A stretch of DNA of 64,000 nucleotides from an uncultured Bacteroidota bacterium (lineage in GTDB: Bacteria; Bacteroidota; Ignavibacteria; Kryptoniales; Kryptoniaceae). Each line of letters starts with the position of its first letter. The stretch's first letter is position 1. The stretch is taken from NCBI GenBank assembly GCA_964593475.1, contig CAZQJI010000001.1, forward strand, positions 3,168 through 67,167, written 5' to 3'. Shown piece by piece: positions 27,792-33,188 of the stretch. The position numbers and the translations under genes were made by a program. The notes under the pieces were generated by a model. The model made no database searches and was not told the origin of the DNA. It was given only the letters and a program-made list of their open reading frames with translations.

Positions 27792-28976
27792 ATGAAAGTT
27801 TTTGATTTTGAAATTCCGGAGTGTAAGAATTTTACTGGTTATAAGCCGTGTTATTCCTATGCTAAATGTCATGAAACAGGTTGCGTTGATCCAAAACCTT
27901 TTGGGGTTAAAATTTTGATTATAAACCTTGATGCGATGGGCAATGTTTTGCTTACGACTTCAATTCTACCTGCGATAAAAAGGAAATATCCTGAGAGTTC
28001 AATTTACTGGCTCACGCTTAAGAACACACATCGTCTGCTTGACAACAATCCTTATCTTGATGAAGTTTTCGTTTGGGATCCCGAGACATGGCTTATACTT
28101 GAAAATATGAAGTTTGACATTGTGATGAATGTTGACAAGTCCCGCAGGTCTGCAAGTTTGACTATGAAGTTGAATGCAGATAAAAAGTTTGGCTACGGGA
28201 TGAACGAGCACGGTCAGATAATACCTTTGAATGCTTCAGCAGGTTATGATTATCGCCTTGGGCTTGATGATGAATTAAAGTTTAAGAAAAATCAGAAAAC
28301 ACGACAGGAGATTTTGTGTGAGATGTTTGAGCTTGAATATAAGCGTGATGAATATGTTCTTGTTTTAAGCGAAGATGAGAAAAAATTTTCTGAAGAGTAT
28401 AAAAGAAGCGTCGGGATAAAAGATGATGAGCTTGTGGTTGGGTTTAACACGGGTTGTTCTCCTTTATATCCGAATAAAAAAATGACGATTGAGCAACATG
28501 TTGAGCTGATAAAGAGATTTTCAAGATATGACGGAATAAAGCTTGTTTTGCTTGGTGGACCTGAAGATACTGAAAGAAATGAAGAAATTTTCAGAAGAGC
28601 TGTTGAAATTGATGGTGTTGCCGGGAAATTAATTAACACTCCAACAACCGAAGGGATAAGGCGTGGGATATGCTATGAGAACATTTGCGATGTTGTTATA
28701 ACCGGTGATTCATACGGGATGCATCTTGCGATTGCGTTGAGGAAGTTTGTAATAGCGTGGTTTGGTTTAAGTTCGTGGGTGGAGGTTGATTTATATGATA
28801 GAGGTGTTAAGTTGATTCCAGAGGGTCTTGAGTGTGCCCCGTGCTGGAAAAAGGTATGTCCGTATAATCTTGAATGTATTCAGATGATTGACCTTGACAG
28901 AATTGAAAAAATTGTGGTTGAATATAAGGAGAAAGTTTTCAATAGCGTTTTAAAAGTTAAATCTGAGGTTGTTTAA
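27792..28976 (+). CDS. Glycosyltransferase family 9 (heptosyltransferase-like)
   Basis: ILII..DAMGNVL.T, VITGDS.GMHLAIA, C-terminal C.PC....C....C motif. Confidence 0.88.
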   Translation: MKVFDFEIPECKNFTGYKPCYSYAKCHETGCVDPKPFGVKILIINLDAMGNVLLTTSILPAIKRKYPESSIYWLTLKNTHRLLDNNPYLDEVFVWDPETWLILENMKFDIVMNVDKSRRSASLTMKLNADKKFGYGMNEHGQIIPLNASAGYDYRLGLDDELKFKKNQKTRQEILCEMFELEYKRDEYVLVLSEDEKKFSEEYKRSVGIKDDELVVGFNTGCSPLYPNKKMTIEQHVELIKRFSRYDGIKLVLLGGPEDTERNEEIFRRAVEIDGVAGKLINTPTTEGIRRGICYENICDVVITGDSYGMHLAIALRKFVIAWFGLSSWVEVDLYDRGVKLIPEGLECAPCWKKVCPYNLECIQMIDLDRIEKIVVEYKEKVFNSVLKVKSEVV

Positions 28977-28997
28977 AGTTGTGTTGTGAATTTGTTT

Positions 28998-29026
28998 TTG
29001 ACAAGTTGTGAATTTTTTAGTAAATT
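28998..29026 (+). promoter_or_regulatory. sigma70-type promoter upstream of tRNA-Pro copy 1
   Basis: TTGACA (28998-29003), 17-nt spacer, TAAATT (29021-29026). Confidence 0.65.
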
Positions 29027-29053
29027 TTATTTGAAATTGTTTCCGTTCTTTAG

Positions 29054-29163
29054 AAAAATTCGGGACGTAGCGCAGCCTGGTAGCGTCCCTAAGGGAGTCC
29101 TTAGGACCACTACCTTGGGGTGGTAGGGGTCGCGGGTTCAAATCCCGCCGTCCCGACTAAAAA
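29054..29163 (+). repeat. 110-bp direct repeat, copy 1 (contains interrupted tRNA-Pro)
   Basis: Identical to 29415..29524 (offset 361 nt) by direct reading. Confidence 0.95.
29061..29156 (+). tRNA. tRNA-Pro(GGG) with 22-nt insertion (29086-29107) between canonical positions 24 and 25
   Basis: Acceptor CGGGACG/CGTCCCG, D arm GCGC-AGCCTGGTA-GCG[insert]C, anticodon stem CTACC/GGTAG with loop TTGGGGT, T arm GCGGG-TTCAAAT-CCCGC; CCA not encoded. Confidence 0.9.
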
Positions 29164-29176
29164 ATTTTAAAATCTT

Positions 29177-29431
29177 ATGCCTTACTTTGTTTACATCCTT
29201 AAAAGTTTGAAGGATGGTAGTTATTATATCGGACACACGAAAGATGTAATAAAAAGATTGAATGATCACAATTTTGGTCGTGTTAAGTCAACAAAAAGTA
29301 GAAGACCATTGAAATTAATTTACATTGAGGAATTTAAAACGAAAAAAGAAGCATTTGCGAGGGAGATGTATTTAAAAAATCCAGAAGGTTATCTTGAAAA
29401 GCTGGAGATTATTAAAAAATTCGGGACGTAG
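29177..29431 (+). CDS. GIY-YIG nuclease (UPF0213/SLX1-like, single domain)
   Basis: YFVYIL.S......YYIGHT.D...RL..HN, RP.KL.Y.E.F....EA..RE..LK; conserved Arg and Glu present. Confidence 0.93.
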   Translation: MPYFVYILKSLKDGSYYIGHTKDVIKRLNDHNFGRVKSTKSRRPLKLIYIEEFKTKKEAFAREMYLKNPEGYLEKLEIIKKFGT

Positions 29432-29524
29432 CGCAGCCTGGTAGCGTCCCTAAGGGAGTCCTTAGGACCACTACCTTGGGGTGGTAGGGGTCGCGGGTTC
29501 AAATCCCGCCGTCCCGACTAAAAA
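29415..29524 (+). repeat. 110-bp direct repeat, copy 2
   Basis: Identical to 29054..29163. Confidence 0.95.
29422..29517 (+). tRNA. tRNA-Pro(GGG) copy 2 with the same 22-nt insertion (29447-29468)
   Basis: Sequence identical to copy 1; first 10 nt overlap the end of the GIY-YIG ORF. Confidence 0.9.
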
Positions 29525-29618
29525 TTTAAGATACATAATTTGATTTGAAATTATTGAACCTTCCTTTTAAAAGCACCTCTTGAAAAATCGGGGTAAGACA
29601 AAGTCAGGAATTAAAGCC

Positions 29619-30536
29619 ATGAACATAGTTATCGGCTCGCTTAAAAATATCTTTGATGATGCTTTAATTGCTGCTTCAACTGATGAGCCAGTTTTGATAC
29701 TTGGTGAAACTGGAACCGGAAAAGAGGTCCTCGCCCGATATATACATCAAAATTCAAGCCGAAAAGATAAAATTTTCATACCTATTAACTGTGCTGCTAT
29801 TCCGCCAAATCTTCTTGAAAGCGAACTTTTTGGATATAAAAAAGGTGCATTTACCGGGGCAGACAAAGATAAAAAGGGAATTCTTGAAGAGGCAAATGGT
29901 GGAACTGTTTTTCTTGATGAAATCGGGGAACTTCCGATTGAATCACAGGTTAAAATTTTAAGAGCGATTGAAGAAAAAGAAATTATTTCAGTTGGAGATA
30001 CAAAACCGAAACAAATTGATGTTCGCTTCATCGCATCAACAAATGTTGATTTAAAGTCAAAAGTTGAAAGAGGTGAATTCAGGAAAGATCTTTATTATCG
30101 TCTTTCAGTTTTTGTGTATAAACTTCCGCCACTTCGTGATAGAATTTACGATCTCCCGGAATTTGTTAAGTATTTCATTCAATCTTCGGGTAAAAATGTT
30201 AAAATTGATTCAGCAGTTATGGAACTTTTCTTTTGTTACCCATGGCCCGGGAATATAAGAGAATTGAGAAGCGTTCTTGTCTATGCTCTTGCAAAGTCAA
30301 ATGGTGAAAAAATCATGGTTGAACATCTTCCGGATTATCTGGTTCATTTTTGCAGGCATCCGGAGATTTTGAGGGGGAATGATGCGCGTAAAAAGCTTGA
30401 ATGTTTTGAGGCGTATTTAATAGCTGAAACTTTGAACGAACATCCTGAACCAAAAGAAGCAGCTCGTTTTCTCGGCATAAGTTTGCGGACATTTTACCGC
30501 AAGTTGAAAAAGTATAAAATCCTTCCGAAGAAATAA
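29619..30536 (+). CDS. sigma54-dependent activator (AAA+ plus Fis-type HTH) lacking an N-terminal sensory domain
   Basis: GETGTGKE Walker A, ESELFG..KGAFTGA, FLDEIG, WPGNIREL, C-terminal HTH; ATG 29619 preceded by CAGGAA (ORF track extends to TTG 29580). Confidence 0.92.
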   Translation: MNIVIGSLKNIFDDALIAASTDEPVLILGETGTGKEVLARYIHQNSSRKDKIFIPINCAAIPPNLLESELFGYKKGAFTGADKDKKGILEEANGGTVFLDEIGELPIESQVKILRAIEEKEIISVGDTKPKQIDVRFIASTNVDLKSKVERGEFRKDLYYRLSVFVYKLPPLRDRIYDLPEFVKYFIQSSGKNVKIDSAVMELFFCYPWPGNIRELRSVLVYALAKSNGEKIMVEHLPDYLVHFCRHPEILRGNDARKKLECFEAYLIAETLNEHPEPKEAARFLGISLRTFYRKLKKYKILPKK

Positions 30537-30691: not shown

Positions 30692-31216
30692 ATGAAAAAA
30701 GTTTTCATTGACCCGTCAAGATGCACCGGTTGTAAAAGTTGCGAAGTTGCCTGTGCGGTTGAACATTCCGTTTCAAAAGACATTTACAAGGCGATTTTTG
30801 AAAAACCATCCCCGCCGAAATTTAACACTGTTTTAAAGTTTGATGGTTTTATCGCTTCTTTAAGATGTGCTCATTGTGAAGATGCCCCTTGTGTTGCGAT
30901 TTGCCCGACCTCCGCAATTTACAGGGATGCTGAGACAAACCTCGTGGTTTACAATGATTTAAAGTGTATAGGTTGCTGGCAATGTGCTGTAGCTTGTCCG
31001 TTTGGCGCAATTTATCCTGATTTAACGAAAAAAGTTTCAAGAAAGTGTGATGGGTGTAATGAAAGAGTTAAAGCAGGTAAGATCCCAGCATGTGTTGAGG
31101 CTTGTCCGACAAACGCCTTGATATATACTGATGTTGAAACGCTTGAGCAGTTTAAACGTGAATCAACAATTGCATCTTTCTCAAAATCAACAAAAACTTA
31201 CATGGAGGTAGTTTAA
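30692..31216 (+). CDS. cooF: CooF-like 4x[4Fe-4S] ferredoxin subunit
   Basis: CTGCKSCEVAC, CAHCEDAPCVAICP, CIGCWQCAVACP, KCDGC...PACVEACP; directly upstream of cooS. Confidence 0.9.
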   Translation: MKKVFIDPSRCTGCKSCEVACAVEHSVSKDIYKAIFEKPSPPKFNTVLKFDGFIASLRCAHCEDAPCVAICPTSAIYRDAETNLVVYNDLKCIGCWQCAVACPFGAIYPDLTKKVSRKCDGCNERVKAGKIPACVEACPTNALIYTDVETLEQFKRESTIASFSKSTKTYMEVV

Positions 31217-31217
31217 A

Positions 31218-33188
31218 ATGGCAGACATTTTAAAAGACAAAGAAAGGGTTTGGGATGATAAGACAAATAATTTTGGTCTTTTGCCACAATCAAATGTGGA
31301 ACTTTTGAAAAAGGAATTTAAAGAAGTCAAAACGACTTCTTTACAGAGATTGGCTTTGCAGGAACCACAATGTGGATTCGGGGAACTTGGAGTTTGTTGC
31401 AGAATGTGTTATATGGGACCTTGTAGAATTGATGTTTTTGATGGGGGTCCGAAAGTTGGGGTTTGTGGTGCCACTGCTGATACAATAGTTGCACGAAATC
31501 TTTTAAGAGAAACAGTTGGTGGTGCAGCTTCGCATACTGAACATGCAATGGATATTGCAGAAGTTTTGAAAGAGGTTGCAGAAGGGAAAATTTCAACCTA
31601 TATGATTAAAGATGAAGCAAAACTTCGCAAAGTAGCTGAAAATCTCGGAATTAAAACGGATGGAAAAGATATAAAGGAAATTGCAAAGGAAGTTGCTGAA
31701 ATTTCACTTGAAGATTTTAAACGGCTTGAGAAAGAACCAGCGGTATGGATCAAAGCATATACTCCAAAATCAAGTTATGAACAGTTGGAGAAACTCGGGG
31801 TTATACCGCATAATGTTTGGCGTCCGATAATGAATGCGATGCACAGAACAAGCATGGGTAATGACGCTGACCCCGTAAATATAATGCTTGCGGACTTGCA
31901 AATGGGCTTAATTGATGGGCTTGGTTTAACGATGGCAACTGAACTTTCAGATGTTCTGTTCGGAACACCAAAACCGATAAGAAGCTGGGCAAATCTTGCG
32001 GTCATCAAAGAAGACCATGTAAACATCGCTGTCCACGGGCATAACCCGCTTCTTTCGGAGAAAATAGTTGAATGGGCTGAAAAATTAAATGATAAAGCAA
32101 AATCTCTCGGAGCAAAAGGGATAAATATAGTTGGGGTTTGTTGCACTGGAAACGAGGTTTTAATGCGTCATGGTGTCCCATTAGCTGCGAATGAGTTTCA
32201 GGCGGAACTTGCAATTGTGACCGGAGCGCTTGAAGCAATGGTTGTTGATTATCAATGTATCTGGCCGATTTTGAGTGATGTCGCATCTTGTTATCACACA
32301 AAACTTATCACAACAATGCCTTTTGTTAAAATTCCGGGAGCAACACACATTGAGTATTCACCTGAGAAAGCAGATGAGGTCGCAAAGCAAGTAATTGAGA
32401 TAGCGCTTGAGGCATATAAGCAAAGGGAGCCGAGTCGGGTTCACATCCCGGATTCAATGGAGGAGATAATCGCCGGGTTTTCAGTTGAGGCATTGATTGA
32501 GGTTTTAAGCAAATTAAGCCCGGAGGACCCTCTTAAACCGTTGATTGATAATATCGTAAATGGAAATATTTTTGGTGTCGTTGCAATTGTCGGATGCCCA
32601 AATCCAAAAACAAGACGCCTTGCGTTTACTGAGAGGATGATAAAGGGCTTGATAAAGAATAATGTCCTTGTTATCGTAACTGGTTGCATCGCACACATTG
32701 CGGGGCAATCGGGATTTTTAAATCCAAATAGGGTTGACTCTTTTGAAGTCGGAGATGGTTTAAAACAGGTTTTGAAGGCGCTTGGAAATGCAGCAGGTAT
32801 TAACAGTTTGCCTGTTGCCATCCATATGGGCTCATGTGTTGATAATTCAAGAATCGGTGTTCTTTTGAAAGCGTTATCAGAAAAACTTGGTTTAAAAGTA
32901 TCTGATTTACCTGTTGTTGCATCAGCGCCGGAGTTAATTTCCGAGAAAGCAATTTCAATTGGGACTTGGGCTTTAGCTCTTGGTGTAACAGTTCATGTTT
33001 GCCCGCCTCCGAGAATCCTCGGCGGTCCGAAAGTAAGGGAAATTCTCACAAAGGATTTGAAGACATTGACAGGTGGAGAAGCTTATGTTGAGTGTGATCC
33101 TGAGCTTGCTATTAAAGGGATACTTGATAGAATAAAGCAAAAAAGAATCGCTTTGAACTTGCCAGTTCCTGAGGCAGTTCAAATTTGA
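31218..33188 (+). CDS. cooS: Anaerobic Ni,Fe carbon monoxide dehydrogenase catalytic subunit
   Basis: D/B-cluster QCGFG..GVCCRMCYMGPC..VCGA; catalytic SH..H; C-cluster ligands VHGHNP, VCCTGNE, DYQC, VGCPN, TGC, GSCVDN; SEKA lysine. Confidence 0.97.
   Translation: MADILKDKERVWDDKTNNFGLLPQSNVELLKKEFKEVKTTSLQRLALQEPQCGFGELGVCCRMCYMGPCRIDVFDGGPKVGVCGATADTIVARNLLRETVGGAASHTEHAMDIAEVLKEVAEGKISTYMIKDEAKLRKVAENLGIKTDGKDIKEIAKEVAEISLEDFKRLEKEPAVWIKAYTPKSSYEQLEKLGVIPHNVWRPIMNAMHRTSMGNDADPVNIMLADLQMGLIDGLGLTMATELSDVLFGTPKPIRSWANLAVIKEDHVNIAVHGHNPLLSEKIVEWAEKLNDKAKSLGAKGINIVGVCCTGNEVLMRHGVPLAANEFQAELAIVTGALEAMVVDYQCIWPILSDVASCYHTKLITTMPFVKIPGATHIEYSPEKADEVAKQVIEIALEAYKQREPSRVHIPDSMEEIIAGFSVEALIEVLSKLSPEDPLKPLIDNIVNGNIFGVVAIVGCPNPKTRRLAFTERMIKGLIKNNVLVIVTGCIAHIAGQSGFLNPNRVDSFEVGDGLKQVLKALGNAAGINSLPVAIHMGSCVDNSRIGVLLKALSEKLGLKVSDLPVVASAPELISEKAISIGTWALALGVTVHVCPPPRILGGPKVREILTKDLKTLTGGEAYVECDPELAIKGILDRIKQKRIALNLPVPEAVQI

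Follow-up and report, generated by a model that had tools for sequence, protein, structure and literature searches.

What is a pair of small palindromes doing inside a bacterial tRNA gene? The question arises in a stretch of 64,000 nt (hereafter the window) from an uncultured Bacteroidota bacterium of the Kryptoniaceae (Ignavibacteria; Kryptoniales), taken from assembly GCA_964593475.1, contig CAZQJI010000001.1, positions 3,168 to 67,167 of the forward strand. Here a tRNA-Pro(GGG) gene is split by a 22-nt insert, TCCCTAAGGGAGTCCTTAGGAC, between G24 and C25. We propose that the insert is the double-hairpin DNA module of a small, selfish-looking cassette that carries a GIY-YIG nuclease gene and is lodged in the tRNA-Pro(GGG) gene, and that it is likely no intron; on balance we hold this to be probable. 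The proposal is based on the anatomy of the locus, its presence/absence polymorphism among relatives, the recurrence of the module and the conservation of its hairpins. In what follows G000 is the source genome and the other G numbers are the compared genomes; contigs, loci and sequencing runs are labelled C, L and X, respectively.

The locus has the layout R-nuclease-R on the forward strand, in which R is a repeat unit of 110 nt composed of an insert-bearing tRNA-Pro(GGG) gene with 7 nt on either side. The two units (29054-29163 and 29415-29524) are identical base for base. The first tRNA gene (29061-29156) measures 96 nt to the discriminator and does not encode CCA; the second (29422-29517) contains the same insert and was recognised by Rfam as a tRNA with 44.6 bits and a local insertion of 34 nt. 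Both are called 'tRNA-???' of 97 nt by ARAGORN. The modules, located at 29086-29107 and 29447-29468, each consist of TCCC-taa-GGGA followed by GTCC-tta-GGAC. Between the units lies the gene for a single-domain GIY-YIG nuclease of 84 aa (29177-29431; PF01541, E 5.8e-18, residues 3-70). Its open reading frame (ORF) starts 20 nt past the first tRNA gene and ends inside the second R, the final 17 nt being the first nucleotides of that repeat (29415-29431) and the stop codon TAG being U8-A9-G10 of the second tRNA. The nuclease gene has modules on both sides, one ending 69 nt 5' of the ORF start and the other beginning 15 nt past the stop.

A preliminary description, made from the letters of the window, had noted the insert between G24 and C25 and the perfect odd palindromes formed by both of its 11-mer halves, and this was borne out at the first copy; the identical second copy is added here. 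It had also stated that removal of the 22 nt restores a canonical tRNA. Indeed, the remaining 74-nt body is the canonical tRNA-Pro(GGG) of the congener G003, base for base. The alternative hairpin of 7 bp that it had pointed out (CCTAAGG/CCTTAGG) is present as well, with a z score of about -2.6 for the DNA fold.

The corresponding site was compared in relatives (G011 was left out of the comparison, and G002, G005, G008 and G009 gave no informative match). In the congeners G001, G004 and G010 the site is empty, with one canonical tRNA-Pro gene and no nuclease gene between the same two flanking genes. It is filled in G000, G003 and G007, where the nuclease gene and extra tRNA-Pro copies are found between these two genes, and G006 retains a remnant of three tRNA-Pro copies, the nuclease gene being absent at the locus. 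When the genomes are ranked by the identity of the flanks to G000, filled and empty sites interleave. The nuclease diverges faster than the flanking proteins, with 79% vs 94-95% identity to G000 for G003 and 67% vs 86-88% for G007.

The arrangement within the filled sites differs from genome to genome. G003 contains, in this order, a tRNA-Pro copy with two inserts, a canonical tRNA-Pro, the nuclease gene and a remnant. Its two-insert copy has the 22-mer of G000 at 24/25 and TCCCGAAGGGACTCCTTGGGAG between C56 and A57 in the T-loop; in the remnant, one module connects the 5' part up to G24 with what follows from the T-loop's 3' part. The order in G007 is canonical tRNA, nuclease gene, two-insert copy. 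In the third copy of G006 about 10 of the 27 positions of the 5' part are changed, and both modules are still intact hairpins. The comparison of inserts across relatives that had been suggested beforehand also yielded a compensated variant in this genome, TCCCAAGGGGAACCCTTAGGGT. Similar inserts of 22-24 nt are present between C56 and R57 of the T-loop in G003, G006, G007 and G023, and in relatives a number of the tRNA copies with inserts are shortened or have a 5' part that has diverged; such copies are not normal tRNAs. The exact insert of G000 was found both in G003 and in a named relative, Candidatus Chrysopegis kryptomonas. All variants at 24/25 start with T, and the orientation of the insert relative to the sense strand of the tRNA is constant across the tRNA-Pro loci.

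A second family of the order (G014, G023 and G026) has different double hairpins at the same two tRNA positions, for example TCC-gaa-GGA followed by TCCCGT-gca-ACGGGA. Of the 7 other insert-bearing genomes, 6 (G003, G006, G007, G014, G023 and G051) have a canonical tRNA-Pro(GGG) gene at the locus itself, as identified by ARAGORN; in the seventh, G026, it is suggested only by a BLAST match on a different contig. At a locus of G051 (L028 on contig C39, approximately 1150-2333) there are three tandem nuclease genes, the third of which is frameshifted or split. The tRNA-Pro pieces of this locus carry a compound insert of 43 nt in the D-loop and, in the anticodon stem, a 22-nt double hairpin (TGCC-gaa-GGCA followed by TCCC-ttc-GGGA) which resembles the reverse orientation of the module in the window.

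To survey the module as a sequence family, the relaxed pattern TCCCNAAGGGASTCCTTNGGAS and its reversed control were run against the 401 genomes of a phylum sample. The pattern was found at 22 sites in 9 genomes and the control at none, so the module is not a product of chance. All nine genomes belong to the class of G000: besides G000 itself, 8 of 98 genomes of the class were positive, against 0 of 302 outside it. A genome can contain up to 6 copies. Outside G000 there are 20 sites, of which 6 lie in the T-loop of a tRNA 3' fragment (ggttc-22 nt-gaatcc) and 14 are intergenic or in leaders. One identical 22-mer, TCCCGAAGGGACTCCTTTGGAG, occurs in the T-loop of a tRNA-Pro copy of G007 and in a tRNA-Ala fragment of an Ignavibacteriaceae metagenome-assembled genome (MAG); there it splits the fragment at 56/57, and a nuclease homolog is adjacent. 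Several of the 14 sites outside tRNAs are in repeated contexts, and two are inside the loop of a 15-bp hairpin. These two, L111 and L120 of G225, are separate loci with the 22-mer at position 1501 in the loop of the perfect hairpin aacctccgaggttt/aaacctcggaggtt; judged from the sequence, the module appears nested within another palindromic repeat there. At 5 of the 20 sites the flanks can form at least 5 pairs, a property of 3.2% of random junctions. As the sites are not mutually independent and 15 of 20 have no such flanks, insertion into pre-existing hairpin loops may be taken as a hint only.

The inserts keep their shape while their letters change. Of the 18 distinct inserts, 15 can be parsed as two directly abutting hairpins, and the 12 distinct stems in these contain 62 pairs which are all Watson-Crick, with no G-T. 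The second stem occurs as GTCC/GGAC, CTCC/GGAG, ACCC/GGGT, TCCCGC/GCGGGA and others. The two positions that the pattern leaves free as G or C are always paired in its hits, as G-C or C-G, and in G006 an A-T pair is present there. Perfect palindromes free of wobble pairs, with a shape that is kept during sequence turnover, fit a DNA-level element better than an RNA helix. When the insert was read as one long hairpin instead (CCNAAGG with CCTTNGG), the free loop positions were Watson-Crick in 3 of 8 types of 22-mer, G-T in 2 and mismatched in 3. Since the two free loop positions pair no better than chance, we prefer the reading as two small hairpins.

Three explanations had been offered for the insert in the preliminary description: a mini-intron, a tolerated extra arm, or a DNA mark like the repetitive extragenic palindromes (REPs), linked to the adjacent nuclease. 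The last of these agrees with the evidence: in relatives, members of the double-hairpin family turn up together with GIY-YIG genes and tRNA fragments, and some genomes have them dispersed. The mini-intron found no support, and the extra arm was retained for G000 only, as discussed below. The same description had named recent pseudogenes, with an insert neither conserved nor repeated, as the case against its reading; the insert is both conserved and repeated.

The 84-aa protein is a bare GIY-YIG catalytic domain in which no other domain was found. None of the NCBIfam families matches it, and its closest named relative is encoded by Ca. Chrysopegis kryptomonas (79% identity). By analogy, the closest described system would be that of the Ssn nucleases and their hairpin repeats, with SsnA of Neisseria meningitidis as the example. 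According to Chenal et al. 2025 (PMC11893778), Ssn proteins are single-domain GIY-YIG nucleases of approximately 94 aa, which bind the hairpin repeats on either side of the gene that encodes them and cleave single-stranded DNA (ssDNA) a few nucleotides upstream; they do not cut double-stranded DNA or RNA. Several features of that system match our locus: a single-domain protein of about 90 aa with hairpin repeats on both sides of its gene, repeats that are dispersed in some genomes, a family that is widespread across phyla, and a core of the NTS repeat, TTCCCGCG-MAV-GCGGGAA, that can be set beside TCCC-NAA-GGGA here and TCCCGC-ttt-GCGGGA in relatives. Differences are also evident. The hairpins of the present system are abutting pairs inside duplicated tRNA genes, whereas the word 'tRNA' is absent from the main text of PMC11893778; G000 has 2 copies and not hundreds; and the activity of the present protein is a prediction.

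From this comparison we infer the substrate of the nuclease and its role in recombination; the loss of tRNA function, taken up below, is inferred as well. The 84-aa protein would, like the Ssn nucleases, recognise the double hairpin in ssDNA. Nicks beside the hairpin would then stimulate recombination between the tRNA repeats, which could lead to duplication, to a return to a single copy by deletion, to tandem arrays and to gene conversion. The state of G000, with one and the same insert in both copies, is likely to have resulted from gene conversion or unequal crossing-over. The tRNA copies on either side, being those of a highly conserved gene, could in addition act as homology arms for entry by recombination.

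A more far-reaching version can be formulated, which we regard as doubtful. The 22-nt double hairpin would itself be a tiny non-autonomous mobile DNA, moved in trans by an Ssn-like single-strand nuclease; it would enter precisely, and without target duplication, into exposed ssDNA loops, above all between the universal TTC and RA of tRNA T-loops, and the tRNA copies would be portable homology arms that admit the cassette to any genome with that tRNA. Related in kind are the REP/RAYT (REP-associated tyrosine transposase) systems and IS200/IS605 with its subterminal hairpins. In these a cognate small nuclease or transposase recognises short palindromes in the form of single-strand hairpins, insertion is precise and without target duplication, and the HUH Y1 enzymes can rejoin DNA. 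The present module resembles them as a short palindromic DNA unit tied to a small nuclease; unlike the HUH Y1 enzymes, a GIY-YIG hydrolase is not known to rejoin DNA. These systems are also brought up in the discussion section of PMC11893778.

Several results weigh against the cassette as proposed here. The mechanism does not account for the precise placement of the 22-mer without target duplication. Outside G000, a nuclease homolog is present within 1.5 kb of only 1 of the 20 module sites. All nine module genomes encode nuclease homologs (1-8 each), but the family is also present in 67 of the 98 genomes of the class, so that its presence in 8 of 8 module genomes does not discriminate. G000 itself contains the 22-mer at two sites only, with up to 4 mismatches allowed, as was found when the search for other copies that had been recommended earlier was run; an abundance like that of REPs in this genome is therefore rejected. 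The published SRM motif, HGTCWYN(0-2)YYVSBRHN(0-5)WNVSBRGN(0-2)RNCYNB, has 3 matches in G000 and none in 28901-29700, also with W relaxed. The best sequence matches of the nuclease in the PDB are the UPF0213 proteins BH0048 and EF2693, and the protein may belong to cd10448 (Ssn) or to UPF0213 (cd10456). Finally, no canonical tRNA-Pro(GGG) gene was found in G000 (96.5% complete) by ARAGORN, BLAST or Rfam, a search that had likewise been recommended, and both insert-bearing tRNA bodies are without substitution, as in a functional gene. A partial tRNA match on C50 turned out to be a different tRNA, cut by the contig end.

In Supplementary Data 4 of PMC11893778, Ca. Chrysopegis kryptomonas is listed as positive by psiblast for a homolog of cd10448 (GIY-YIG_unchar_3), and as negative for a CDD score >100 and for a tblastn homolog of SsnA, which makes its membership of cd10448 only borderline; 0 SRM elements are given for it. 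Side observations on short motifs in G000 are one further copy of the half-site TCCCTAAGGGA, at C127:137, and a count of 213 for CCTNAGG, which is a raw count without an expectation.

The intact tRNA bodies are a reason to ask whether the split gene still makes a working tRNA, either as a 96-nt RNA with an extra arm at position 26, in which G10-U closes the D stem, or by excision of the insert through some bacterial activity and rejoining of the halves, for example by RtcB. The predicted RNA fold of the 96-nt transcript (-47.1 kcal/mol, z -2.6) retains all four tRNA arms (acceptor, D, anticodon and T) together with a fifth hairpin, and the closure of the D stem by G10-U next to an extra arm, as foreseen in the preliminary description, is seen in it; the initial T of every 24/25 variant permits this pair. 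Both copies are otherwise identical to the canonical tRNA, no other gene for this isoacceptor was found, and CCU and CCC make up 31.6% of the proline codons of G000. RtcB is encoded on C74 (E 5.5e-183), an unspecific finding, as 10 of 14 control genomes have it and it is common in bacteria. Short introns at non-canonical positions of archaeal and eukaryal tRNAs are spliced by proteins and depend on EndA and a bulge-helix-bulge (BHB) motif. The present insert is like them in being short, at a non-canonical position and removable to leave a perfect tRNA; it differs in its bacterial host and in its occurrence in T-loops, in truncated copies and outside tRNAs. PF01974 (EndA) had 0 matches in G000, where the incompleteness of the genome precludes proof of absence, and the control was positive in 4 archaea. 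No BHB is present in the predicted fold, in which both junctions are in a multiloop beside a 6-bp hairpin (minimum free energy and centroid structures alike), and by inspection the ends of the insert can form only 3 pairs, UCC/GGA. Bacterial group I introns interrupt tRNA genes too and are sometimes linked to homing endonucleases, as described in PMC3984707. Here, in contrast, 22 nt are inserted at the junction of the D and anticodon stems; an insert of this size is no group I or II ribozyme, and at the gathering threshold Rfam reported only tRNA, and no ribozyme, in the window. Group I introns of bacterial tRNA genes are ribozymes of hundreds of nucleotides in the anticodon loop. An intron is, on these grounds, not likely.

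The working tRNA as a whole we consider quite unlikely. In relatives the insert is also present in broken or partial copies beside a canonical gene, and thus did not evolve for tRNA function; the module moreover occurs outside tRNAs and its stems are without G-U pairs. SsnA is inactive on RNA, according to PMC11893778. G000 also has tRNA-Pro(UGG) and tRNA-Pro(CGG) genes elsewhere, as identified by ARAGORN. The tRNA-Pro(GGG) is dispensable in enterobacteria and missing from many bacteria, and in enterobacteria tRNA-Pro(UGG) is able to read all four proline codons. Judged from its genes, the bacterium has probably lost a working tRNA-Pro(GGG), in which case CCU and CCC would be read by tRNA-Pro(UGG). 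We keep the tolerated arm for G000 alone, because both of its copies are intact and they are the sole genes found for the GGG isoacceptor.

Another account takes the nuclease as an enzyme that cuts the double-stranded DNA of an intact tRNA-Pro gene. Inserts at or near its recognition or cleavage sites would protect the copies in the cassette (target-site immunity in homing), the shape of the hairpins would be irrelevant, and the repair of breaks from a protected copy would spread insert and nuclease gene alike, in the manner of trans or collaborative homing. This would explain why two families of the order have their inserts at identical tRNA positions, 24/25 and 56/57, and also the presence/absence polymorphism at one syntenic site and a formerly canonical copy in G000 that now bears the insert, as conversion after cleavage would give. 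A free-standing endonuclease that homes in trans has been described (PMC2790892), and so has SegB in the tRNA gene cluster of phage T4 (PMC2330249). SegB is like the present nuclease in being encoded by a GIY-YIG gene among tRNA genes that is inherited selfishly with its flanks, and SegB-driven segmental amplification (PMC13096335) has its counterpart in the tandem arrays of relatives such as G127; unlike the present nuclease, SegB is a phage enzyme making double-strand cuts (PMC2330249). The nuclease studied here is chromosomal, consists of the catalytic domain only and is accompanied by hairpin modules and duplicated tRNA copies. The specificity of GIY-YIG homing enzymes comes from a DNA-binding domain that they carry and that this protein lacks. 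In addition, a canonical and unprotected tRNA gene survives beside the nuclease gene or insert-bearing copies in 6 of the 7 other genomes, a mere disruptor of a site needs no conserved abutting perfect hairpins, and it would not be expected at the 14 intergenic sites outside tRNAs. The homing account is, therefore, unlikely in our view.

It could also be argued that the flanking tRNA-like units and hairpins serve at the RNA level, as processing and stability signals (cuts by RNase P and RNase Z, 3' hairpins) that free the mRNA of the nuclease from a transcript started at a tRNA promoter, and protect it. A putative sigma-70-like promoter, TTGACA-17-TAAATT (28998-29026, forward strand; 10 of 12 consensus positions), lies approximately 35 nt 5' of the first tRNA copy and is the only strong promoter-like site at the locus, and no terminator-like site was found in 28900-29650; both statements come from a scan by consensus only. 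A single transcript from this putative promoter may comprise the first tRNA copy, the nuclease gene and the second tRNA copy. The ORF that begins 20 nt after one tRNA and finishes inside the next, and the constant orientation of the insert at tRNA-Pro loci, would agree with such a role. It would leave unexplained, however, the 19 of 20 module sites far from any nuclease gene, the stems with Watson-Crick pairs only, and the hairpin-bearing copies that G006 keeps without a nuclease gene, and we regard it as very unlikely.

An artefact or plain decay, with identical copies caused by collapse or duplication in the assembly and an insert that is a chance palindrome in a dying pseudogene, is scarcely credible. 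G000 is a MAG of 2.52 Mb in 162 contigs with 37.6% G+C, in the Logan contig graph the repeat unit closes on itself as a cycle, which does not fix the number of units, and the depths of the Logan contigs are uneven (41.8 upstream, 27.8 in the repeat unit and 21.5 downstream). Yet a 389-nt Logan contig of run X1 comprises the repeat, the nuclease gene and the start of the next repeat with 0 differences, and the upstream and downstream contigs of X1 overlap the ends of the repeat, joining the insert-bearing unit to both flanks, also with 0 differences. Since X1, with 94% of the sampled words, is possibly the source sample itself, it is not independent support. The runs listed as holding the locus are hot-spring metagenomes, with no RNA run among them. 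No joint lacking the insert was present in the Logan contigs of X1, X16 and X17; such contigs drop rare variants, so that rare alleles are possible. The identical insert in G003 and Ca. Chrysopegis kryptomonas also speaks against an artefact, as does the module family, with 9 positive genomes of 401 and none for the control. In a minor contig of X1 (depth 7.6, vs 21.5 for the main form), 35 other letters stand in place of 82 nt of intergenic DNA at 29521-29604; it is a strain variant at the right border of the cassette, downstream of the second tRNA copy.

The layout of nuclease gene and tRNA recurs beside tRNA genes in many bacteria. A tRNA or tmRNA gene is present at 52 of 80 loci with relatives of the nuclease; the loci are spread over Patescibacteria, Bacteroidota, Thermodesulfobacteriota, Terriglobia, Gammaproteobacteria and others. 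A tRNA gene on the same strand lies within 400 nt at 39 of the 80, and further fragments of that tRNA were detected at 32 of these 39, a few of the 32 being cross-matches between neighbouring tRNAs. At 11 more loci a tmRNA gene lies just downstream. In Patescibacteria, L036, L037, L047-L049, L051, L054, L057, L059, L061 and L083 have the nuclease homolog approximately 100-550 nt 5' of the tmRNA gene on the same strand. By their position, tmRNA genes could be lodging sites as well.

An ORF that extends into the 5' acceptor strand of the downstream tRNA copy and has its stop codon on the TAG of that tRNA is common to Kryptonia-like, Chitinophagaceae and Rikenellaceae loci. At the Chitinophagaceae locus the D arm of the downstream tRNA copy is replaced by CCCCGCC-tgt-GGCGGGG, and the ORF stops at the TAG of the tRNA. 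The loci noted for the stop at U8-A9-G10, besides that of the window, are L002 (approximately 1975-1991), L045 (approximately 1735-1749) and L063 (approximately 1730-1746). Of the 401 genomes of the phylum sample, 177 encode the nuclease family, frequently more than once and as tandem arrays, which suggests that a unit of tRNA fragment and nuclease may amplify head to tail. Examples of arrays are G127:C2:365051-367635, with at least 9 tandem GIY-YIG units about 299 bp apart, and G403:C1:1384658-1385510, with 3 units about 323 bp apart; another is located at G426:C2:57392-58335.

The literature yielded no account of small GIY-YIG genes lodged within tRNA genes that are duplicated and split by hairpins, in a search that did not extend to subscription journals and part of the Chenal supplements. 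The present case contributes the module family shared by different tRNAs and intergenic sites across one class, the insertion sites 24/25 and 56/57 conserved in two families, the nuclease ORF that ends on U8-A9-G10 of a tRNA, and a genome whose resident gene for the isoacceptor has itself been overwritten. If the cassette is what we propose, tRNA genes of many bacterial phyla would host a compact parasite of nuclease plus hairpins, which duplicates, breaks and sometimes, as in G000, replaces the resident tRNA gene. This bears on essential, conserved genes as landing pads for selfish DNA, and on the natural roles outside Neisseria of the newly described Ssn ssDNA nucleases. It also concerns tRNA annotation, in which the call 'tRNA-???' by ARAGORN misses a proline isoacceptor. 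An enzyme of a thermophile with a defined cognate site of 22 nt would be a candidate ssDNA tool, and G000 would be a natural experiment on life with, or use of, a tRNA that carries a 22-nt extra arm.

The genes that flank the cassette, and also the empty sites, encode a family-9 glycosyltransferase (heptosyltransferase) and a sigma-54 activator/regulator. Directly downstream of the latter, at 30692-33188, are genes for a 4Fe-4S dicluster protein and then for a 656-aa protein of the Prismane/CO-dehydrogenase family (PF03063, E 1.4e-163).

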